IMG/VR virus record: IMGVR_UViG_2585427768_000007
DNA from: a virus
Lineage: Duplodnaviria > Heunggongvirae > Uroviricota > Caudoviricetes
Length of the DNA stretch: 16,552 bases
Strand: one strand, 5' to 3'
Shown here: positions 2,402 through 15,682 of the stretch, piece by piece
How the letters are laid out: every line of letters begins with the position of its first letter
Numbering within the stretch: position 1 is the first letter of the stretch
Made by a program: the position numbers and the translations under genes
The notes under the pieces: model-generated
Databases searched by the model: none
Told to the model about the DNA's origin: nothing
The model's input: the letters and a program-made list of their open reading frames with translations, nothing else

Positions 2402-3193
2402 TTACCGGCCCTGGTTGTGCGATCGTGTCAGATGCACCAGTATTTTGTTGTGAACCTGAGTACGTACCGTTTTTACGGGCGAAATATTCCTCTTTCGTGA
2501 TTTCAGTAGCCCCAGCGCCAGTGCCTTATCCAGACCAGAAAGTTTGTTTGCGCGACCGTATTTTTCGCCGTCCTTATCGGTGAAAAGGAAGTAGAACGGT
2601 CCCTCACGCTCTACAGATGGTTCGTCTTCCACTTCGCATTCGGTTTTTTCGTTGTCCGGCATTGCCGTTTCCACTGCATCAGTTTCTGGTACTGGTGACG
2701 GGAGAGTACCAGCTGTGCCCTGATTTGTTCCTTCGTCATCTTCAAACACGCCCTTGGTAGTCAGGTATTCAGTGATGTATTTGTTCAGTGCTACGGGATC
2801 TTTGTGAATGTCGATCGGACGCTCACGGACAAGGCCAAAAATAGTCTGACGGTCGTAGCGAACGGCATCAGGCTGTTTGCGCATTGATGCCGAAATACGC
2901 TTCCAGTCTTCGCGATCGTTGTCGATAACTTCATTTTTTGCCCAGCGATGGATGCTGCCGTCAATGTTTCCGGTATCAATATCGCCAGGCCAGAGAGCGT
3001 AGGCCAGTTCTTCATCCAGCGTTTTCCATGTCTGCTTGTATTCGCGACAAATGGCGGCAGTGACTGGGTTGATTTTTCCTGCTGAGTTTTCAGTGTTCTG
3101 TTGATTGACTCTGGCGCTGGCGAGATCAACAACAGACGTGTATTTTCCAGTCTCCTTGCGCTCACCGTCCCGACGTTTTTTCCAGATACGCAT
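2402..3193 (-). CDS. Middle segment of phage early protein (acidic), in -1 frame relative to the 3765 start
   Basis: 263-aa ORF. Protein-like composition and common codons from 3193 to about 2510; the last ~35 codons use rare codons (cta, cga, agg, ata, cgg) and look like out-of-frame read-through. ATG at 3193 is preceded directly by TGA. Confidence 0.45.
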   Translation of the reverse strand: MRIWKKRRDGERKETGKYTSVVDLASARVNQQNTENSAGKINPVTAAICREYKQTWKTLDEELAYALWPGDIDTGNIDGSIHRWAKNEVIDNDREDWKRISASMRKQPDAVRYDRQTIFGLVRERPIDIHKDPVALNKYITEYLTTKGVFEDDEGTNQGTAGTLPSPVPETDAVETAMPDNEKTECEVEDEPSVEREGPFYFLFTDKDGEKYGRANKLSGLDKALALGLLKSRKRNISPVKTVRTQVHNKILVHLTRSHNQGR

Positions 3194-3765
3194 TCAGCCT
3201 GAATTTCGGGCCATTTGGCACCAGGATTACATTTATGCTTAACCCACCCGATAGCAAACAGCTTAAGCTCCGGATACATAGCGTTAACATCAGGCATTTT
3301 CATCAACGCTTCAACGATATGCCCGTCAAAGGTAGCAACGTCTTCCTGCAACAATTCCTGCGCGCCAATAACCATATCAACGGTGATGTTTTCACATGTA
3401 CCGAACTTAACCAGGACAGCGTTCTGTACTTCAAGGGACAGCTTGTCAAAATTGACGTTCATCGGATCGGATTCAGTCTCAACCGGGACAAAGGAAGCAG
3501 ACTCCTCATCCCAGCGGTTTTCCTGCATATATTCAGCATCCCAGGAATCGAGGGCAGGGCGGGGTATACCGGGTTTATCCTCGCAGACAAGAAATTTATA
3601 AGCGCAGTCCTGAGCAGCCGGATAATGTTCCAGGAATTGCCAGTGAAATTTTGCGCGGGCGCGACGTTCATCACCGGCTTCAATGGCAGTGGCTACAGCG
3701 ACGGCACCTTCTTCCTTTATTGCCTGTTCGTCCGGAATAGCGGCGCAAATAAAGACTTTACTCAT
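2791..3765 (-). CDS. N-terminal segment of phage early protein (first ~197 codons genuine, remainder out of frame)
   Basis: Shine-Dalgarno GAGGT upstream of ATG 3765. Composition is protein-like up to the A6 run at 3176-3181; after that the frame yields S/T/L/R-rich low-quality sequence while the -1 frame becomes protein-like. Confidence 0.5.
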   Translation of the reverse strand: MSKVFICAAIPDEQAIKEEGAVAVATAIEAGDERRARAKFHWQFLEHYPAAQDCAYKFLVCEDKPGIPRPALDSWDAEYMQENRWDEESASFVPVETESDPMNVNFDKLSLEVQNAVLVKFGTCENITVDMVIGAQELLQEDVATFDGHIVEALMKMPDVNAMYPELKLFAIGWVKHKCNPGAKWPEIQAECVSGKNVGTVSARRLENTRLLLISPAPESINRTLKTQQEKSTQSLPPFVANTSRHGKRWMKNWPTLSGLAILIPETLTAASIAGQKMKLSTTIAKTGSVFRHQCANSLMPFATTVRLFLALSVSVRSTFTKIP

Positions 3766-4392: not shown

Positions 4393-4448
4393 AAAGGGCG
4401 GCAGAGCAGTCACGGAGTAAAACTGATACCGCCAAACGTCACCAGAAA
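4393..4448 (-). ncRNA. dicF: DicF small regulatory RNA (ftsZ-targeting sRNA)
   Basis: Minus strand reads TTTCTGGTGACGTTTGGCGGTATCAGTTTTACTCCGTGACTGCTCTGCCGCCCTTTTT, which matches the E. coli DicF sequence as I remember it, including the terminal GC stem and U-tract. Confidence 0.8.
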
Positions 4449-5953: not shown

Positions 5954-6244
5954 TTAACAGGTTTTGTTTGGATACTGTCTTCGTGAGTGAACTACATTTA
6001 CGATCTCGATGTTAGATGCTGTTACTCGGTAAAGTATTATGTAGTTAGGATGAGTCACTATCTCACGAAGACTTGGAACTCTTTCGCTCGGTGGGTACAG
6101 ATAAGGGTGTTCAGTAAGTGACAAAACTGATGTTTCAATGCGTATTTTTAGTCTACGTGCAGCGGGAGGGTTTTCCTTAGCAATATAGGCTACGATCTGA
6201 CGTAAATCATCACGTGCAGAAGGTAGCCATAAAATGGGCAGCAT
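5954..6244 (-). CDS. Type II toxin, RelE/ParE superfamily (ParE-like)
   Basis: 96-aa ORF with ParE-like conserved layout (W near N-terminus, DL..I..YI, central proline-rich segment, ILYRV, H.RR near C-terminus). Start ATG overlaps the antitoxin stop by 1 nt. Confidence 0.8.
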   Translation of the reverse strand: MLPILWLPSARDDLRQIVAYIAKENPPAARRLKIRIETSVLSLTEHPYLYPPSERVPSLREIVTHPNYIILYRVTASNIEIVNVVHSRRQYPNKTC

Positions 6245-6435
6245 TACTCACTCCTGTTCGTTGCAGCTAATTGAGCAATAAGGTTTTCCATTTCAGCCAT
6301 TACTTCGTCATGTGGAATTGCAGGACGGGGATCTGAGAGGCTTGCTGCCACTTTGGTTCGCAACCATTCGTTATAGCTGTTTTCTTGTTCGACTGTTTCA
6401 AATTCAGAAATTATCGGGGAAAGGGCTGTACTCAT
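6244..6435 (-). CDS. Cognate antitoxin (ParD-like, putative)
   Basis: 63-aa acidic ORF immediately upstream of and coupled to the toxin. Strong Shine-Dalgarno GAGGAGG. Antitoxin-first order is typical of ParDE/RelBE modules. Confidence 0.7.
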   Translation of the reverse strand: MSTALSPIISEFETVEQENSYNEWLRTKVAASLSDPRPAIPHDEVMAEMENLIAQLAATNRSE

Positions 6436-6452
6436 GTTTTTACCTCCTCAGA

Positions 6453-6953
6453 TTAGGCGCGACGACCCTTTTGCGCAGCTAGCCATCGCGCAACGATTTC
6501 TTCAATTGATTCTTTTTTCTCCTTCATTTCCTTAAGCATTTTCTCTTTATCTTCTTTGGGGAAAGCCCTGAACGTCTGGAGCAAATCCCGCTCCATGGGG
6601 TCTATATTAAACGGAAGTTCGTTTTCCGATTGTTCCATATCTGCAGATATAGTGACAACATTGTCCTCCCCAGATTCTTGGGGATACATCCTTACAATTT
6701 GTAACAACTCGGCCATATCTGGTCTGATTGACTCGGGAGGAACTTGCAGCAACCCTGCGAACTTGATAACAGCCTCAAGATTTAAAGGTGTCTGACCATT
6801 TAGATAATGGCTTACAGCTCCCTGTGTCGAAAATCCCAGAATTTCTGCCGCACGCTCTTGGGTTAACCCTAGTTGATTTTTTTTCGCCGTCCAGATTTCT
6901 TTCAGTCTCTGGGCGGCTTGCAGGTCGATCTCTGACAGGGATTTTCTTTTCAT
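6453..6953 (-). CDS. Prophage repressor, XRE-family HTH (CI/DicA functional analog), no S24 peptidase domain evident
   Basis: 166-aa ORF; HTH segment LTQERAAEILGFSTQGAVSHYLNG; charged coiled-coil-like C-terminus; divergent from the Cro-like gene across an operator-rich intergenic region. Confidence 0.8.
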   Translation of the reverse strand: MKRKSLSEIDLQAAQRLKEIWTAKKNQLGLTQERAAEILGFSTQGAVSHYLNGQTPLNLEAVIKFAGLLQVPPESIRPDMAELLQIVRMYPQESGEDNVVTISADMEQSENELPFNIDPMERDLLQTFRAFPKEDKEKMLKEMKEKKESIEEIVARWLAAQKGRRA

Positions 6954-7060
6954 ACCTTCAATTCTAATAAGATTATTAATCTCTTTGAAATAGTGATGCT
7001 ATTTACTTTTAAAAATAACAATGCTATTAGTGATCGTGATGACATCACATGAGGTGAACA
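6954..7060. promoter_or_regulatory. Divergent promoter/operator region between repressor and Cro-like gene
   Basis: Two 15-bp sites with TGCTATT half-sites (6988-7002 AATAGTGATGCTATT; 7013-7027 AATAACAATGCTATT) and a distinct 13-bp palindrome GTGATGACATCAC at 7035-7047, just upstream of the Cro-like RBS GAGGTG. Confidence 0.6.
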
Positions 7061-7336
7061 ATGAATCTTGGAGAATATTTGCATCATTCCGGTATAACTC
7101 AGAAGCATTTTGCTGAAATTGTTGGGGTAACCCAAGGGATGGTAAGCCATGTCATTACCGGACGGGCGAAACTTACGGGGAAAAAAATTTTACGCTGGTG
7201 CGAAGCAACAGGCTGGATAGTAACTCCGCACGAGATTGATGGCAGTACTTATCCCAACCCAACCGACGGCTTACCTGTCGAGTATCAGGCTAACACACAA
7301 CCAGAGGCGGGGGTGATTCATGAAAATCAAGCATGA
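7061..7336 (+). CDS. Cro/YdaS-like HTH regulator
   Basis: 91-aa ORF; HTH segment ITQKHFAEIVGVTQGMVSHVITG; divergent from the repressor; overlaps the next gene by 17 nt. Confidence 0.75.
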   Translation: MNLGEYLHHSGITQKHFAEIVGVTQGMVSHVITGRAKLTGKKILRWCEATGWIVTPHEIDGSTYPNPTDGLPVEYQANTQPEAGVIHENQA

Positions 7337-7745
7337 ACACATCCGCATGGCAATGAATGCCTGGGCGTATCCAGACGGTGAGAAAGTTCCAGCAGCTGAA
7401 ATAGCCCGGACTTATTTCGAACTGGGGATGACGTTCCCGGAACTGTACGACGACAGCCATCCGGAAGCCCTGGCCCGTAATACCCAGAAAATTTTCCGCT
7501 GGGTAGAGAAAGACACCCCTGATGCAGTTGAAAAAATTCAGGCGTTGTTACCAGCGATCGAAAAGGCAATGCCACCTTTGCTGGTGGCCAGAATGCGCAG
7601 CCACAGTTCAGCTTATTTTCGGGAGCTGGTGGAGACGCGGGAGCGACTGGTGAGAGACGCTGATGATTTTGTCGCAGTGGCAATCGCCGGTTTCAATCAG
7701 ATGAACCGTGGTGGCCCGGCAGGAAATGCTGTGGCAGTACATTGA
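7320..7745 (+). CDS. YdaT-family protein (CII-like regulator, formerly called a toxin)
   Basis: 141-aa ORF starting MKIKHEHI, the characteristic YdaT-family N-terminus as I recall it; sits directly after the Cro/YdaS-like gene as in Rac. Confidence 0.65.
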   Translation: MKIKHEHIRMAMNAWAYPDGEKVPAAEIARTYFELGMTFPELYDDSHPEALARNTQKIFRWVEKDTPDAVEKIQALLPAIEKAMPPLLVARMRSHSSAYFRELVETRERLVRDADDFVAVAIAGFNQMNRGGPAGNAVAVH

Positions 7746-7816
7746 CTGACAATAGCCATATCGAATCGCTTCCGGCAACTCGTGAGTAAAAAGATTCGGT
7801 ATCAGAAGAGGTGAGT

Positions 7817-8833
7817 ATGGCTAACGCCTGGCTCAGATTATGGCATGACATGCCAAATGACCCTAAGTGGCGAACAATTGCCAGGGTGTCAGGGCAGCCA
7901 ATTGCAACAGTGATGGCAGTGTATATCCACCTCCTGGTGAGCGCGTCACGAAATGTCACGCGAGGTCACATTGATGTCACGACAGAAGATTTGGCAAGTG
8001 CGCTCGACGTGACAGAAGAGGTAATTGATTCAATTTTGCAGACGATGCAGGGGCGGGGACTTGATGGTGATTTAATCACTGGATGGGAAAAACGCCAGGT
8101 GCTTAAAGAGGACAACGGCAATATTTCGCAAACCGCAAAATCTCCGGCAGAGCGCAAGAGGGCGCAGCGTGAGAGGGAAAGAAAGCGGGAACAAAATGGC
8201 GATTGTCACGGCGCGTCACGAAATGTCACGCACATGTCACGACAAGTCACGACAGATAAAGATACAGATACAGAATTAAACCCCACACATAACGCGCGCA
8301 TGCGCGAGAGTGCTCCAACCGGTGAGTCGCATGGTGCGCCGTTGCAGACAGCCGAACCTGAATACCTGGACGGCCTGAGCGAACCGATCGGGAAATTTTC
8401 GATGACTACTGTCTGGCAGCCGTCGTCGGATTTTCGACAACGGGCAGCAGTGTGGGGTATGGCTCTGCCTGAGCCGGAATTTACACCTGCAGAGCTTGCC
8501 GCATTCCGGGATTACTGGATGGCGGAGGGGAAGGTTTTCACGCAGGTTCAGTGGGAGCAGAAATTTGCCCGCCACGTGCAGCACGTCAGGGCACAGGTAA
8601 AACCAGTCAGCAAGGGGGTAAGCCATGCAGCATCAGGTGGCACGGCATCACGGGCAGTTCAGGAAATCCGGGCAGCACGCGAACAGTGGGAACGTGACAA
8701 CGGATTTATCAGCAACGGAAACGGCCTGGAAGCTGTGGGAGCTTATGGGGGAGGTGTATTCGAACCGCTGGACACAGAAGAACGGGGCCGCACCTTCGAA
8801 GCTCTGGATTGCCCAGATTGGCGCGATGACTGA
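7817..8833 (+). CDS. Replication initiator / replisome organiser (lambda O-like, with DnaT-like C-terminal region)
   Basis: About 338 aa from ATG 7817 (GTG at 7811 is an alternative). Contains two iteron clusters inside the coding sequence, as lambda O contains ori. Followed by a P-like gene. Confidence 0.8.
   Translation: MANAWLRLWHDMPNDPKWRTIARVSGQPIATVMAVYIHLLVSASRNVTRGHIDVTTEDLASALDVTEEVIDSILQTMQGRGLDGDLITGWEKRQVLKEDNGNISQTAKSPAERKRAQRERERKREQNGDCHGASRNVTHMSRQVTTDKDTDTELNPTHNARMRESAPTGESHGAPLQTAEPEYLDGLSEPIGKFSMTTVWQPSSDFRQRAAVWGMALPEPEFTPAELAAFRDYWMAEGKVFTQVQWEQKFARHVQHVRAQVKPVSKGVSHAASGGTASRAVQEIRAAREQWERDNGFISNGNGLEAVGAYGGGVFEPLDTEERGRTFEALDCPDWRDD
7941..7981. repeat. Iteron cluster 1 (4 x GTCACG/GTCACA at 10-11 bp spacing)
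   Basis: GTCACG at 7945, 7955 and 7976, GTCACA at 7965; an inverted copy CGTGAC at 8008-8013. The 21-bp block GCGCGTCACGAAATGTCACGC is repeated exactly at 8211-8231. Confidence 0.7.
8201..8280. repeat. Iteron cluster 2 (5 x GTCACG at 10-11 bp spacing) plus adjacent AT-rich tract; candidate replication origin
   Basis: GTCACG at 8205, 8215, 8225, 8236 and 8246, followed by GATAAAGATACAGATACAGAATTAAA. Lambda-ori-like layout inside the initiator gene. Confidence 0.7.
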
Positions 8834-9287
8834 ACAGCAAATCCGGCTGGTCTGCCGTCAGTGCATGGACCGCTGCCGGGCGGGTGAAACGTGGCCCCCG
8901 GACCTGGCTGAGTTTGTTGCACTGATTTCGGAGAGTGGGGCAAATCCATTTGGTCTTACGGTGGATGCAGTGATGGAAGAGTACCGGCGCTGGCGCAATG
9001 AATCCTGGCGATACGACGGGAGTGATAAATACCCGTGGCCACAGCCTGTGCTGTACCACATCTGCCTCGAAATGCGTACCAGAGGGATTGAGCGCCAGAT
9101 GACGCAGGGTGAGTTAAAACGACTTGCGGAACGGCAACTGACGAAATGGGCAAAGCATGTTGGTAACGGGATGAGTGTTCCGCCAGTGCGACGACAACTG
9201 GAAGGGGCGAAACACCCGCAAGGGCCAACGCCAATTGAACGGCTGAAACAGGAATACGAACGCCGGAAGGCAGCTGGTTTTATTTGA
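8625..9287 (+). CDS. Replication protein P-like (helicase loader)
   Basis: Central and C-terminal regions align to lambda P as recalled (NR..W[IV].A, TMEQ/MTEQQ, FV/FVA, YPW). Strong Shine-Dalgarno AGGGGG 5 nt upstream of ATG 8625. That start overlaps the O-like gene by 209 nt; alternative starts are 8745 and 8826. Confidence 0.7.
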   Translation: MQHQVARHHGQFRKSGQHANSGNVTTDLSATETAWKLWELMGEVYSNRWTQKNGAAPSKLWIAQIGAMTEQQIRLVCRQCMDRCRAGETWPPDLAEFVALISESGANPFGLTVDAVMEEYRRWRNESWRYDGSDKYPWPQPVLYHICLEMRTRGIERQMTQGELKRLAERQLTKWAKHVGNGMSVPPVRRQLEGAKHPQGPTPIERLKQEYERRKAAGFI

Positions 9288-9320
9288 ATCTGAGAAACGA
9301 TTTTGTCGGAGGAAATATTA

Positions 9321-10091
9321 ATGGAAACCGTATTTGACGCACTGAAAGCACTGAAAAAAGCCTCTTCACATGTGGTGGCAGCTCGCCTTGGAATCAGTCG
9401 TGAAGAGGCTGTCAACGAGCTGTGGGAACTCAAAAGAAATGGCGTCGTTGATAAAACTGGTCACACCTGGTTTCTGGCTGGCGAAGGGGAATCCCGGGTA
9501 ACCGAAGAGCGGCCAGTAAAATCTGAAGCACAGGATATGCTGACCGGGGAGGTCGAACAAAAAGTTACCGCGGACATGATGATTGAGTTTATCTGTCAGG
9601 ATGGGGCTAAAACGTGTGAGGAACTGGCGGATAAGTTCGGTGTTAGCATTCGCAAGGTTGCTTCCACGTTGGCGGTCGTAACAGCAACGGGGCGCCTGGC
9701 ACGCGTAAATCAGAACGGTAAATTTCGTTACTGCATACCGGGCGCTGATTTACCGGCAGAGCCGGAAGCTGCATCCGTAGCGGAAACGGATGGTAAAGCC
9801 ATTCCTCAGCCAGCAGGTATTGCGTTACCTGTCCGGGAAGCGGAAACACAGGAAGAAATAAAAACTGAAAGTGTGGCGGTCACAGTGCAGTCACAGCCGT
9901 CGTTCACCAGAAAACATCCGGATGGTCTGATTTTACCATCGCTGCATGTGGCTAACCGCGAGCTGCGCCGGGCAAAAGGTCAGGTTCAGAAGTGGGAGCG
10001 AGTCTGCGCCGCGCTGCGGGAGCTGTACAAGCACCGGGATATTGTTCGACAGATTGTCGATTCATCCGGTCGTATTGTGTCGGAAAAGTGA
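9321..10091 (+). CDS. Hypothetical phage protein with two winged-helix-like segments
   Basis: 257 aa from ATG 9321 (GGAGGA 7 nt upstream). No catalytic motif recognised. Confidence 0.6.
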   Translation: METVFDALKALKKASSHVVAARLGISREEAVNELWELKRNGVVDKTGHTWFLAGEGESRVTEERPVKSEAQDMLTGEVEQKVTADMMIEFICQDGAKTCEELADKFGVSIRKVASTLAVVTATGRLARVNQNGKFRYCIPGADLPAEPEAASVAETDGKAIPQPAGIALPVREAETQEEIKTESVAVTVQSQPSFTRKHPDGLILPSLHVANRELRRAKGQVQKWERVCAALRELYKHRDIVRQIVDSSGRIVSEK

Positions 10092-10106
10092 TTGCCGGAG
10101 GCGCTT

Positions 10107-10502
10107 ATGGCAAAAGTATTTACACCAGAAGAGCGGGAAGAAGTGAAGGCGCGCATTGTGGAATTCGTGCGCCTGAGCGGACGAGAAACTTTTCGACAAC
10201 TGGCAGATAAAACGGGTGTCAGTAAGACCGCTATTCGTCGTTTATCTGGTGCGCTTGCGGCCAGTGGTGATGTCTGGCTCTGTGATTGCGGGGTATTTCC
10301 ATCAGAGCAGGCGTATCGCGTATGGCGTAAGACACCGGAGAAGGCTGCTGACCCGACACTGATTCGAAAGTTACCAGACGGAGAAATACGCCGCTACGAC
10401 AGGCGCCTGAATATAATCTGTCGCGAGTGCCGGAAGAGCGAAGCTATGCAGCGTGTACTGACATTTTATCAAGGAAATGTTAGGTATTTTAGACGTTACT
10501 AG
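10107..10502 (+). CDS. Hypothetical phage protein, winged-helix-like N-terminus, Cys-rich C-terminal half
   Basis: 131 aa from ATG 10107 (GGAGG 5 nt upstream). The TAG stop at 10500-10502 lies within the CTAG target-site duplication of IS5. Confidence 0.55.
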   Translation: MAKVFTPEEREEVKARIVEFVRLSGRETFRQLADKTGVSKTAIRRLSGALAASGDVWLCDCGVFPSEQAYRVWRKTPEKAADPTLIRKLPDGEIRRYDRRLNIICRECRKSEAMQRVLTFYQGNVRYFRRY

Positions 10503-11696
<1,194 letters not shown>

Positions 11697-11853: not shown

Positions 11854-12540
11854 ATGACCCCAATAAAAATATTTATGACTATTGCTGATTTCAAACGGCC
11901 TAAATTGGAACTCCCAAACGGGGCAAACAAACTACTACTGCACTCTTGCTGTGCTCCATGTTCCGGTGAAGTGATGGAGGCGCTTCAGGCCTCGGGAATC
12001 GACTACACCATCTTTTTCTACAACCCGAACATTCATCCTCAGAAAGAGTATTTAATTCGTAAGGATGAAAATATTCGCTTTGCTGAACAACACGGCGTGC
12101 CGTTTATCGATGCTGATTACGACACCGACAACTGGTTTGAACGTGCCAAAGGAATGGAATGGGAGCCTGAGAGGGGGATCCGTTGTACCATGTGTTTTGA
12201 CATGCGTTTTGAGCGGACAGCGTTGTACGCTGCTGAAAATGGTTTCAGTGTGATCAGCAGTTCACTGGGCATTTCACGCTGGAAAAATATGCAGCAGGTT
12301 AACGAGTGTGGGCGGCGAGCTGTTGCGCATTATCCGGGTATGGTGTACTGGGATTATAACTGGCGCAAGCAGGGCGGCTCGTCCCGTATGATTGAAATCA
12401 GCAAGCGCGAAAAATTCTATCAGCAGGAATATTGTGGCTGTGTGTATTCTCTGCGCGATACCAATCTACACCGCAAATCTCAGGGACGCCCTCTTATCAA
12501 AATTGGCCAACTCCACTACGGAAAAGAAGAGAAGGAGTGA
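11854..12540 (+). CDS. QueH-like protein (DUF208; epoxyqueuosine-reductase family), putative
   Basis: 228-aa ORF with [11 protein letters not shown] near the N-terminus, NPNIHP, RC..CF, and C-terminal [10 protein letters not shown], matching DUF208/QueH cysteine motifs as I recall them. Family assignment is from memory. Confidence 0.55.
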
Positions 12541-12610
12541 TTTTATGGATCACCTTTCTGATTGATTTCATATTGGCGAGGTGACGTGAGTTAAGTAGAA
12601 TTGCTGCGGG

Positions 12611-12635
12611 TGCCTGAGGCTGTCTGCCTCAGGCA
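12611..12635. promoter_or_regulatory. Perfect 10-bp inverted repeat (TGCCTGAGGC-TGTCT-GCCTCAGGCA) between the queH-like and methyltransferase genes
   Basis: GC-rich hairpin with no U-tract; each arm contains a CCTNAGG heptamer. Candidate attenuator, operator or RNA-stability element. Confidence 0.4.
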
Positions 12636-12718
12636 TGAACACCAAAAGGCAGATAGAGAAAGCCCCAGTTAACATTACGCGTCCTGTAAGACGCTCAACA
12701 TTAATCTGAGGCATATGG

Positions 12719-13843
12719 ATGCGGATGAAAGAATTAAATAAATTCAGAGTGATAGACCTCTTTTGTGGGGCAGGTGGATTATCTTATGGTTTTCTTCATG
12801 GAGAGATGTCTGACTACTTTGAAAGTATCCTTGCTATTGATAATAATGCTGCAGCTATAAATACCTACAATGCCAATTTTGGTTTGCATGGAGTTCAGGC
12901 AAATATTGAGGAGTGGGCATCCAGCAATACTGTTCCTGAGGCTGATGTGGTCATAGGTGGCCCCCCGTGTCAGGGATTCAGTTTATTAAATAAGAATCGT
13001 TATGGTGATCACCGAAGAGCATTGTGGGAGCCTTATATGGATGTCATTGAGCGTTCAAGGGCTTGTATGTTCGTCATGGAAAATGTCCCCGGATTGCTGA
13101 TAAGCGATGAGTTTGCGGACATTACGTTTAGAGCGAAATCCATGGGCTTTATTCTGCTTAATCCAATGGTGTTGAATACTGCTGACTATGGAGTACCTCA
13201 GACAAGAAAACGAACGATAGCAATCGGTATCAAACGAGAACTCTTCGATGTGCATAGTATTCCGGCGTTCCCGCCAGCACCAACGCATCGTTCCCCTGAT
13301 AAGGATGTCGCTTTGCCTGAATGGGTCTGTACGCGTGATGCAATTGGTGACTTACCTGCTCCTGTTGGAACTGATATTCGTAATGAACTTCCTCCGCTGA
13401 ACTTACATTTTGGGCGTAATCCCACACCTGTTTCTCTGGAGCGATATAAAGCGGTTCCACCAGGAGGTAACCGTTTCGATTTACAGAAAAAAAGACCTGA
13501 TATAACCCCGGCGTGCTGGCTAAAAAAGAAATCTGGAGGGACCGATTTGTTTGGACGTCTGTGGTGGGACAGACCTTCAGTAACGATTCGTACTGAGTTT
13601 TTCAAACCGGAGAAAGGGCGATATTTACATCCGGAAGAGGATCGGCCAATAACTCATCGTGAGGCAGCGAGATTAATGTCTTTTCCTGATAATTTCATTT
13701 TTACCGGTTCAAAAACTGAGATTGCAAAGCAGATCGGGAATGCTGTTCCACCGCTATTTGCGGCAAAAATCGCACAATATGTGTATGGAGTTTTGCAGGG
13801 ACGGTATAAGAATAACATCAGTAAGAATAGTCAAGCAGCCTGA
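12719..13843 (+). CDS. DNA (cytosine-5)-methyltransferase, Type II R-M modification subunit
   Basis: 374-aa ORF with canonical m5C motifs in order: I DLFCGAGG, IV GGPPCQGFS, VI ENV, VIII QTRKR, IX REAARLMSFPD, X GNAVPP. GAGG 8 nt upstream of the ATG. Confidence 0.9.
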   Translation: MRMKELNKFRVIDLFCGAGGLSYGFLHGEMSDYFESILAIDNNAAAINTYNANFGLHGVQANIEEWASSNTVPEADVVIGGPPCQGFSLLNKNRYGDHRRALWEPYMDVIERSRACMFVMENVPGLLISDEFADITFRAKSMGFILLNPMVLNTADYGVPQTRKRTIAIGIKRELFDVHSIPAFPPAPTHRSPDKDVALPEWVCTRDAIGDLPAPVGTDIRNELPPLNLHFGRNPTPVSLERYKAVPPGGNRFDLQKKRPDITPACWLKKKSGGTDLFGRLWWDRPSVTIRTEFFKPEKGRYLHPEEDRPITHREAARLMSFPDNFIFTGSKTEIAKQIGNAVPPLFAAKIAQYVYGVLQGRYKNNISKNSQAA

Positions 13844-13856
13844 AGGAAATCCAGAA

Positions 13857-14735
13857 ATGAATGGAGATTTGGTTGACAGCATAGTTGGTTTTGCTGAAGC
13901 CAGAAAGGAGTTTCATGCCCAATTGTTACTGAATACGCTCACAATTAATACTGCCGGAGTTGTTAGTAACGCAGATAGCAGTAACAAAAACAGTAAAGCT
14001 ATAGCAAGAGAAATTGCTCGCTTCTTGCAGGCTGAAACGATTGGTGAACGTGTTGCAGGGCAAACATCTGGTAATCAGTTTGAGAGTATCTGCGCAGAGT
14101 TTATAGAAAAAACCTTTTTTAAACTCAGCCACTTACGCCCTGGAAAATGGAATGTACATCAGGTTTCTGGTAGAAACAGATTAGAGATAGCTAAATATGA
14201 ACAATATGCCCATCTTATAGCATTGGATAGTGCTGCAAAAAGTAATCCTCAGCTAGCTGCTGCACTGGGGAGTGATTATACGATTTCACCAGATATTATT
14301 GTTGAAAGAGAACCTGAATGTGATCAAGTTATCAACAGTCCTGAATTACTGGTGGATGATTCTGTTACCCGCATGTCAGCTCTCAGGAGTTCGAATGGTG
14401 GGAAACCAATATTACACGCAAGTATTTCCTGCAAATGGACAATAAGAAGCGACCGGGCCCAGAATGCTCGTTCTGAGGCATTAAATCTTATTCGCAACCG
14501 TAAGGGAAATCTCCCTCATGTAATGGTTGTTACTGCTGAGCCTACTCCAAGTCGTCTGGCGTCTATTGCTCTTGGTACTGGTGATATAGATTGCGTGTAT
14601 CATTTTGCGCTTTATGAACTTATATCAGCAGTTGAAATACTGGGGCTCAGCGATGCAGCTGACATGCTTTCCGTGATGGTTAATGGTAAAAGATTAAAGG
14701 ATATTTCTGATCTTCCCTTGGATCTTGCAGTCTGA
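13857..14735 (+). CDS. Type II restriction endonuclease, putative (NgoMIV/Cfr10I-like PD...SxK...E arrangement)
   Basis: 292 aa from ATG 13857, 14 nt after the methyltransferase stop (the track ORF starting at 13722 overlaps the methyltransferase). P145-D146, S191-x-K193, E207: the D-to-K spacing of 47 and K-to-E spacing of 14 equal those I recall for NgoMIV (D140, K187, E201). Confidence 0.6.
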   Translation: MNGDLVDSIVGFAEARKEFHAQLLLNTLTINTAGVVSNADSSNKNSKAIAREIARFLQAETIGERVAGQTSGNQFESICAEFIEKTFFKLSHLRPGKWNVHQVSGRNRLEIAKYEQYAHLIALDSAAKSNPQLAAALGSDYTISPDIIVEREPECDQVINSPELLVDDSVTRMSALRSSNGGKPILHASISCKWTIRSDRAQNARSEALNLIRNRKGNLPHVMVVTAEPTPSRLASIALGTGDIDCVYHFALYELISAVEILGLSDAADMLSVMVNGKRLKDISDLPLDLAV

Positions 14736-14905: not shown

Positions 14906-15184
14906 ATGGCGCACGATACCAAACCATACAATTCTGATAATTCAGCCGTCTTTGCCAGCAGGCACGGGCGGCGTTCTCATGCATTCAAATCTGACTGGTA
15001 TCAGCACGACCCCTGCACCGAAGAACAGGCTGAATGGCTGATTCAGTGTTACCGCAGGCGCGGATACGAGGTTAAGAAAGCCCTCACCCTCGATTATCGT
15101 CACTGGATAATCTACGTCAGACTCCCTTATTCCGAACGCCCACCGCGTCCGTCCCGCACATATCAGCAACGCATCTGGAGGTAA
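14906..15184 (+). CDS. Hypothetical small protein
   Basis: 92 aa from ATG 14906; the track ORF start at 14825 overlaps the terminator. Several rare arginine codons; ends about 30 bp before the IS66 truncation point. Weak call. Confidence 0.3.
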   Translation: MAHDTKPYNSDNSAVFASRHGRRSHAFKSDWYQHDPCTEEQAEWLIQCYRRRGYEVKKALTLDYRHWIIYVRLPYSERPPRPSRTYQQRIWR

Positions 15185-15214
15185 CGTGCGGGTATTACTT
15201 CGACCTGTTCTGGT

Positions 15215-15682
15215 AAAGGCGCTGCTGATAAGCTCCAGTTGCTCTGACACATCACATCCCAGAGAACTGAGTTCACCACCACAGGCAGGACAGCATTCCT
15301 CTTCCGGCCGGATAACCCGGGTTTCACGGGGAAGTGAGGCCGGTAACGGTTTACGGGCTGAAGACTGGCGCAGGGCGGATGGCAGTACCGGGTCATATTG
15401 CTCACCCAGCGTTTCCGCCATTTCTTCCTGAAGTGCGCTGATTCGCTCCTGTGCTTCCTGTATCTGCCGTTCGGTTTTTGCACGAAGTTTTTCTGAGCTT
15501 TTACCGAACTGCATACGTTGCAGTTTCGCAACCAGCGCCTTCAGCCGGTTGATTTCGGAAGCATAAGCCGCCACCCGCTGTGAGAGCAGGCGGTTGTATT
15601 CAGCCATCTGGCGGATGGTGTCCTGTTGCGTCTGCAACAGTGCCCGCAGGCGGGCGTTCTCATGAGCAAGTGAGGTGTCCAT
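15215..15682 (-). pseudogene. IS66 transposase TnpC, N-terminal fragment only
   Basis: Starts MDTSLAHENARLRALLQTQQDTIRQMAEYNRLL, with leucine zipper and CxxC zinc finger (CCPACGG) as in ISEc8-like TnpC. Catalytic region absent; the track ORF continues to 14942 as out-of-frame read-through. Confidence 0.8.

Follow-up and report, generated by a model that had tools for sequence, protein, structure and literature searches.

What is the role of two groups of short direct repeats and an A+T-rich tract that lie inside the coding sequence of a phage replication initiator? The question is raised by a gene (7817–8833, plus strand; an open reading frame with a translation of 338 amino acids) in a 16,552-nucleotide stretch of DNA from the viral record IMGVR_UViG_2585427768_000007 (Caudoviricetes), which was analysed at its full length and is hereafter called the window. 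Positions 6400–10600 of the window are 99.9% identical to the chromosome of Escherichia coli strain JKHS016, and the window is, judged by its sequence, part of a lambdoid E. coli prophage. A first-pass annotation, made from the letters alone, had put forward the repeats and the tract as a candidate origin within the initiator gene. This proposal is supported by DNA-level selection, by a layout shared with most relatives, by the instability of the tract and by a helicase loader gene of the PF06992 family next to it, and we consider it very probable that the element is the replication origin of the prophage and that this origin is contained in the gene for the initiator acting on it. A phage origin within a gene is of an ordinary kind; for this protein family it has not been pointed out before.

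Selection on the repeats and the tract acts at the DNA level

The repeats form two arrays, both on the plus strand. Array 1 (7945–7981) consists of GTCACG at 7945, 7955 and 7976 and GTCACA at 7965 (spacings of 10, 10 and 11 bp), and array 2 (8205–8251) of GTCACG at 8205, 8215, 8225, 8236 and 8246 (spacings of 10, 10, 11 and 10 bp), so that the eight GTCACG and one GTCACA direct repeats, their grouping in two clusters and their 10–11-bp phasing are as the first-pass annotation had described them. The units are 10–11 bp long with an asymmetric core of 6–7 bp (TGTCACG), and Tandem Repeats Finder reported 8204–8254 as five copies of a period of 10 with the consensus TGTCACGACA. An inverted copy on the minus strand at 8008–8013 was likewise present (TGTCACG on the minus strand at 8008–8014), as was an exact 21-bp duplication, in which the block GCGCGTCACGAAATGTCACGC at 7941–7961 recurs at 8211–8231 (both plus strand). 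On both strands of the 16.5-kb window GTCACG occurs 14 times, 9 of the 14 inside 7945–8251 (binomial probability of 5e-13 for at least 9 of 14 copies in 307 of 16,552 bp), and no further cluster of the motif was found elsewhere in it. We propose that array 2 represents the origin-proximal initiator-binding sites.

In the modelled protein, array 1 encodes residues 43–55, which are the end of the helix 29–45 and the loop 46–55, the inverted copy encodes residues 64–66 in the turn preceding helix 67–77, and array 2 encodes residues 130–145 in a disordered linker (predicted local distance difference test score, pLDDT, below 50). The peptide ASRNVT appears at residues 43–48 and again at 134–139 because the 21-bp duplication is in frame, its copies being 270 bp (90 codons) apart; thus the reiterated SRNVT motif noted earlier is encoded twice, as a passenger of the DNA duplication and not as a feature in its own right.

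The copies occupy all three codon phases (3, 1, 2 and 1 in array 1; 2, 3, 1, 3 and 1 in array 2), and therefore it is the hexamer that repeats, not the peptide. Under synonymous recoding the gene would be expected to hold a mean of 1.0–1.4 GTCACG, against 8 observed (~6–8-fold), and 8 copies were reached in 0 of 3000 recodings and in 0 of 3000 permutations of synonymous codons. When the E. coli gene was compared with its homologues from Pseudomonas (P7869) and Aeromonas (pAEv1818), at 65–70% amino-acid identity, the codons of identical residues were themselves identical at 68–77% in the array-1 region and at 31–40% elsewhere. A repeat due to chance or driven by the peptide was ruled out by the codon phases, the synonymous recoding and this cross-species conservation of synonymous sites.

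Array 2 is followed by an A+T- and purine-rich tract of the (ACAGAT / GATAMA)n type (8252–8281, plus strand), which we propose to be a DNA unwinding element and the joint of a mosaic gene. Its A+T content is 73% against a window mean of 51% (97th percentile among 30-mers), no 40-mer in 7401–9300 forms a less stable duplex than the one starting at 8253 (~3.3 standard deviations from the mean), and Tandem Repeats Finder assigned 8252–8274 to (ACAGAT)3.8 with a period of 6, in agreement with the A+T-rich stretch reported after the repeats. In relatives the tract was defined by its position, as the 36 nt that directly follow the last array-2 unit, and across 52 loci its mean G+C content was 0.32 compared to 0.57 for the gene, at a purine fraction of 0.76; G+C was lower than that of the gene by at least 0.15 in 46 of the 52. 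Codon choice differed in the same manner: Asp was encoded by GAT/GAC in 140/7 cases in the tract versus 455/580 elsewhere, and Lys by AAA/AAG in 99/27 versus 371/412, and even in genes with a G+C content of at least 0.58 the GAT/GAC ratio was 41/3 in the tract versus 156/286 elsewhere. The GATA[AC][AG] motif is read in two frames, 43 loci having it in codon phase 1 and 9 in phase 3. A+T richness itself is therefore selected in the DNA. Taken with the arrays, these data show that selection on the repeats and the tract works at the DNA level and not on the peptide.

Other signals were sought around the tract. The folding energy of a hairpin or cruciform in 8195–8320 was the same as that of shuffled sequences (z = 0), scans for promoters and terminators gave only consensus-level matches that did not exceed the expectation from shuffles, and no Rfam family matched the origin region, the only matches in the window, DicF and a sok-like one, lying elsewhere. 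A perfect 12-bp G+C-rich palindrome, CGCGCATGCGCG, is located just 3' of the tract (8295–8306) and is imperfect in the prophage Rac-SA53; in lambda ori, too, a palindrome stands on the right-hand side of the A+T region.

Conservation of the layout and the mosaic initiator gene

Relatives were collected by a scan with one genome per species, which gave 59 loci from many bacterial species and, together with phage genes, 62 loci; when viral contigs were scanned with the profile of the N-domain, the loci recovered were all near-identical copies from E. coli. Two arrays followed by an A+T/purine tract were found at the same gene positions in 51–52 of the 62 loci. Counted as periodic chains, the arrays held a median of 4 copies (range 2–8), spaced by 10 bp in 207 cases, 11 bp in 54, 9 bp in 9 and 12 bp in 5, and the gap between arrays was 127–340 bp. 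In 28 of 51 relatives array 1 is followed, at a distance of no more than 70 nt, by an inverted copy of the local core. The helical phase of the gap between arrays showed a weak preference (Rayleigh p ~8e-4), to which we give no weight because the loci are related and thus not independent.

The hexamer differs between lineages, and within each locus one hexamer makes up all copies of both arrays (GTCACG in 27 loci, GAACGC in 15, GTAACG in 5, GTGACG in 4, GCAACG in 4 and GGAACG in 1). It tracks the initiator lineage and not the host: loci derived from Pseudomonas use GTCACG, GTGACG or CGAACG, and GTCACG is found in Escherichia, Pseudomonas, Aeromonas, Bordetella, Acidovorax and Chromobacterium loci. 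Agreement of all 6–16 copies within a locus, with differences between lineages, is what one expects if a single specificity determinant reads the sites. In the Pseudomonas and Aeromonas phage genes, GTCACG stands at gene positions 129–160, with an inverted copy at 193, and again at 388–430, and a GATAAAGA-type sequence comes next. The Ralstonia phage Firinga (38% identity) builds the same layout from GCAACG, and the uncultured phage ct2G2228 (47% identity) from GAACGC. The loop encoded by array 1 lengthens with copy number, up to 10 copies in locus L143, suggesting that the protein accommodates the DNA; with array 1 in a loop of the putative DNA-binding domain, gain or loss of sites would directly lengthen or shorten the very protein thought to bind them. 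C-domains and downstream genes vary (a P-like gene here, primase/helicase in P7869, a DnaC-like gene in pAEv1818 and DnaB in Firinga), so that the initiator N-domain appears to be the only constant partner of the repeats.

From its N- to its C-terminus, the initiator comprises a winged-helix-like domain, a disordered linker and a DnaT-like domain. It matches PHROG families of 'replication initiation protein' (phrog_1408 at 4e-111), and NCBI names its close relatives 'phage replisome organizer'. The C-terminal domain (8396–8596, plus strand; residues 194–260), of the DnaT-like, single-strand-DNA-binding type, was identified by Pfam PF17948 (E = 3.7e-17) and by matches in the PDB (DnaT 6AEP at E = 2e-21; 6AEP, 4OU6 and 9ZBT all at ~1e-20). 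In the Pfam scan of the 338-residue protein, PF17948 and a sub-threshold HTH_Crp_2 were the only matches returned, with neither Phage_rep_O nor PF09681 (Phage_rep_org_N) among them, and the N-domain has no Pfam family. TIGR01714 gave E = 0.0075 and 16.4 bits on the initiator, far under its cut-off of 49.8, and hhalign detected no homology between the initiator family profile and G38P of phage SPP1 (probability 0.1%). An AlphaFold2 model of residues 1–151 was built from a 44-sequence alignment (mean pLDDT 73, ~90 over residues 10–95) and showed helices at 3–14, 16–25, 29–45, 56–63 and 67–77 and a short beta hairpin at 78–88 in a helix-helix-wing layout, with the linker disordered from about residue 98. 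Foldseek of the N-domain model against the PDB gave no significant match, the weak ones being nearly all winged-helix regulators, and weak matches in a viral library included replisome organisers and Lin1244-like proteins. Because these matches are weak, we regard a winged-helix fold of the N-domain as plausible but not established.

The gene is a mosaic, and its joint coincides with the tract. The 5' half, to about 8274, is 96–99% identical to phages Evi, Tritos and others, and the 3' half, from about 8254, is 86–89% identical to ydaU of Rac-SA53 and other prophages. Only ATAAAGATACAGATA is common to the three gene types (those of the window, Tritos and Rac-SA53) at the breakpoint of similarity, which was placed at 8254–8277 of the window, 3553–3587 of locus L001 and 2996–3020 of locus L002. 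Tritos departs from the window gene in its C-terminal part, and Rac-SA53 in its N-domain (DUF1376) and in the repeats that precede the tract. Thus the N-domain and the repeats form one exchangeable module, and the C-domain and the loader another. Module exchange of the same kind is known for lambda O.

The Rac-type YdaU proteins (DUF1376 plus DnaT-like) resemble the window initiator in one half only: over its C-terminal half, the DNA of the window gene shows 88% identity to Rac-SA53 ydaU, which has the same ATAAAGATACAGATA tract at its domain boundary and a small P-like gene downstream. In contrast, the N-domain of Rac-SA53 is unrelated (PF07120, DUF1376), and upstream of its tract there is an inverted repeat, TGTTCAAACA / TGTTTGAACA (2941–2973 of L002). 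Other DUF1376 genes (loci L171 and L198, from viral contigs) differ in carrying CGTTCAACG units at 11-bp spacing before the tract. The repeats before the tract in Rac-type genes may mark the Rac-type origin (oriJ).

Proposed mechanism, known systems and rival explanations

Iteron-type theta origins in general have at least three direct repeats in helical phase that are specific to the cognate initiator, a neighbouring element of low duplex stability and, commonly but not universally in plasmids, DnaA boxes near the iterons. The present locus has the element of low stability; its repeats are phased at 10–11 bp and their hexamers are concerted and lineage-specific, the initiator being the presumed binding protein. 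What follows on the protein that binds, on opening of the duplex, on helicase loading and on the part played by array 1 is inferred. The winged-helix-like N-domain of the initiator would bind the TGTCACG units and, because these are one helical turn apart, the protein is proposed to be aligned along a single side of the double helix. The complex formed at array 2 (8205–8251) would then open the adjoining (GATAMA)n tract (8252–8281), aided by supercoiling and probably by rightward transcription, which by the gene order would start in the immunity region and cross the origin. The DnaT-like C-domain would hold the single strand and/or recruit the P-like loader (8826–9287) carrying host DnaB. Array 1 and the inverted copy at 8008 would constitute a second set of sites 260 bp upstream, an auxiliary or control element that works through a DNA loop to array 2 or through titration or blocking. 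The domains fit these proposed roles, as seen in the N-domain model, the C-domain matching DnaT and the P-family gene that comes next.

In phage lambda, ori is located inside gene O and comprises iterons and an A+T tract (PMC7466680). The present locus resembles ori in O of lambdoid and Stx phages in the position of the proposed origin at the boundary between an N-terminal origin-binding and a C-terminal loader-recruiting part, in putative initiator-binding repeats followed by an A+T-rich tract on their 3' side (here array 2 and the tract, codons 130–155 of 338), in a P-family helicase loader (PF06992) as the next gene, in a place downstream of a cI/cro/cII-like region, and in the independent recombination of an N-module that includes the repeats and a C-module. 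It differs in that the initiator has no Phage_rep_O match and a DnaT-like C-domain, in its asymmetric units of 10–11 bp with a core of ~7 bp, one per helical turn, and in having two arrays 260 bp apart, the first inside the sequence coding for the DNA-binding domain. Lambda has four dyad-symmetric iterons of ~19 bp. The likeness to lambda ori suggested by the first-pass annotation therefore held for the layout and the P-family loader, but not for the initiator, which is no O homologue, nor for the iterons; since Phage_rep_O is not matched and the C-domain is DnaT-like, 'O-like' is to be understood as an analogy only.

A second precedent is oriL of SPP1, which is situated in gene 38 and has repeat boxes bound by G38P and, next to them, an unwinding element rich in A+T; the SPP1 genome contains another binding region, oriR, at a different place (PMC5737612). 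G38P, too, is a non-AAA+ 'replisome organiser' with the origin in its own gene and with loader and helicase genes after it (PMC5737612). In our analysis of gene 38, repeats at 940–988 and an A+T-rich repeat at 996–1027 of locus L149 were found in mid-gene, like array 2 and the tract. The two systems differ in that the initiator has no detectable homology to G38P and in that the SPP1 repeats are longer and spaced by 33 bp. Two arrays of the same initiator repeat, with only one of them beside the unwinding element, are known from P1, F and the satellite phage P4 (ori/crr), and this likeness suggests that the second array is auxiliary or serves copy control. In P1, F and P4 the clusters are found on either side of the rep gene or are separated by kilobases, the repeats are of 8 bp or 17–22 bp and DnaA boxes are usual, whereas here the arrays are inside the initiator gene and no DnaA box is present (at most 1 mismatch, 7700–8400).

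Several points weigh against interpreting the element as an origin. The DnaA box just mentioned was sought as TTATCCACA; lambda likewise needs none within ori. A search of the literature on GTCACG iterons, on the mapping of ydaU and oriJ and on origins of replisome organisers in Proteobacteria returned nothing on this initiator family. The winged-helix assignment rests on a model of mean pLDDT 73 and on mostly non-significant Foldseek matches. Clear arrays are missing from 10 of the 62 relatives (for example L115, L117, L126, L128 and Mwe-JY25). Among 71 near-identical E. coli loci, variable sites were not depleted in the hexamers (3/60 versus 25/380, not significant), a comparison that has too few variable sites. 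Moreover, the match between hexamer and lineage is partly trivial because repeats within a gene are inherited together with the protein, and protein identity is scarcely higher within hexamer classes (0.62–0.71) than between them (0.61–0.68; GTCACG, GTAACG and GAACGC).

If the repeats served the initiator for regulation only, for example by autorepression, by a transcriptional roadblock in its own gene or by titration of the initiator, the prophage would have its true origin at another place. Array 1 does look more like an operator than like an origin, having no adjacent A+T tract and being followed by an inverted copy in those 28 of 51 loci, and a second iteron cluster is a control locus in iteron plasmids (incA of P1, incC of F). 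Array 2, however, is always directly abutted by the A+T/purine tract, the least stable DNA of the region; repeats followed by a tract in mid-gene are a proven origin in SPP1 and lambda, and there is no other motif cluster in the 16.5-kb window, so that we judge this explanation to be unlikely.

The odds appear poorer still for the view that the repeats are bound by another factor, a host protein or a phage protein such as the cII/YdaT-like one, for a function other than initiation. A cII/YdaT-like gene does stand upstream both here and in pAEv1818, but the hexamer follows the initiator lineage instead of the host, Firinga and ct2G2228 keep the layout with their own hexamers in the absence of an upstream YdaT-like gene, and neighbours vary on both sides, leaving the N-domain as the sole constant partner. 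Marginally less credible again is the idea that the repeats and the hexanucleotide tract have no function as DNA: they would be low-complexity coding sequence, prone to slippage, from which a tolerant loop and a charged linker are translated, or the by-product of a peptide repeat. Copy number does vary (2–8 per array and up to the 10 of L143), the arrays are translated into a loop and a disordered linker, and linkers of the (DK)n type are a frequent form of low-complexity peptide, which the numerous giant-virus matches described below illustrate. Against this, the use of three codon phases means that the peptide is not the repeating unit, synonymous sites are conserved, all copies of both arrays shift to the same new hexamer, and the preference of the tract for GAT and AAA opposes a G+C-rich codon bias and holds in two frames. 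An origin embedded in the initiator gene thus remains the reading that we prefer.

Neighbouring genes, wider occurrence and significance

The initiator gene is preceded by an immunity region (6453–7745) of a cI-like repressor gene (6453–6953, minus strand), a cro-like gene (7061–7336, plus strand) and a cII/YdaT-like gene (7320–7745, plus strand). A ParE-family toxin open reading frame (5954–6244, minus strand) is found beside the repressor gene and abuts a small upstream reading frame (6244–6435, minus strand) that probably encodes the ParE antitoxin. On the other side follows the gene of the lambda-P-family helicase loader (8826–9287, plus strand; PF06992 at E = 3e-15; phrog_109, 'P-like helicase loader'), whose ATG at 8826 overlaps the stop codon of the initiator gene (ATGACTGA). 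The open frame of the P-like gene (8625–9287) begins 200 nt upstream of this likely start, inside the initiator gene, and the profile phrog_15931 (482 positions) matches both the initiator and the P-like protein, as if some annotated members were fused. Further downstream are a DUF1627 gene (9303–10091), a DUF977/Ren-like gene (10092–10502) and, directly after the latter, an IS5-type DDE transposase gene (10535–11551), with fragments of an IS66-family transposase at 14942–15682, indicating that the prophage is interrupted 3' of its replication module by insertion sequence (IS) elements.

The remainder of the window contains a DicF antisense small RNA (4396–4447, minus strand; 76.7 bits in Rfam), as in Qin/Rac-type prophages and phage Tritos, a QueH gene (11854–12540), and an Rfam sok (CssrC) match (12608–12788, plus strand) of 61 bits against a gathering score of 59, which overlaps the start of a reading frame for a C5-methylase. 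This C-5 cytosine methyltransferase (12719–13843) and an NgoMIV-family restriction enzyme (13722–14735) look like a type II restriction-modification system on the prophage region.

Of 5426 complete E. coli genomes, 4601 contain matches to parts of the 4.2-kb region of immunity and replication genes, although much of this figure may be due to the IS5 copy and to further prophage genes that are shared. In each E. coli genome the 4.2-kb query matched at a median of 2 places and at a maximum of 29, and the highest counts may reflect the IS5 copy that the query contains. Many database copies of the initiator are 'partial' (protein clusters P0001–P0029; for example P0008 with 1121 members and P0016 with 963), and assemblies seem to break often in the initiator gene, probably because several prophages share parts of it.

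We also searched viral contigs for the 21-nt pattern AGATAAAGATAAAGATAAAGA, where many matches were noise from low-G+C giant viruses. Of the contigs with this pattern and a G+C content of at least 0.37, 25 of 35 carry the tract at residues 100–205 of a reading frame of 200–350 amino acids, and many of these contigs have 3–5 direct repeats at 10–12-bp spacing just upstream of it (for instance GTCGCC five times, CGTCTG four times, GTTCAA four times within CGTTCAACG, and AAGCAA five times). A (GATAAA)3.5 tract preceded by direct repeats of this kind was seen in mid-gene in viral contigs L150–L269, for example L188, L240, L164, L210 and L253. The reading frames that were scanned include PF09681 replisome organisers, DUF1376 (YdaU-type) and DUF6291 proteins and PHROG 'replication initiation' or 'DnaD-like' proteins, and therefore the design looks common to several unrelated initiator families. 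We tentatively raise the possibility, in which our confidence is limited, of a general origin design in phage initiator genes, independent of protein family, in which short iterons spaced by one helical turn would be followed directly by a (GATAMA)n tract serving both as unwinding element and as the shared joint at which modules for origin specificity and for helicase recruitment are shuffled.

The general picture of phage replication is unchanged by these findings. What they provide is a precise and testable candidate origin, at about 8195–8290 and with a putative auxiliary array upstream of it, for a replication module that is common in the prophages of E. coli and Shigella. The initiator N-domain is also present in prophages of many bacterial species and in phages of Pseudomonas, Aeromonas and Ralstonia, and together with the lineage-specific hexamers (GTCACG, GTAACG, GTGACG, GCAACG and GAACGC) it makes up a natural specificity-swap series for an initiator of the winged-helix type. 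In addition, the (GATAMA)n tract suggests a signature by which origins within genes may be recognised in unannotated phage genomes, and which may point to where replication modules recombine.

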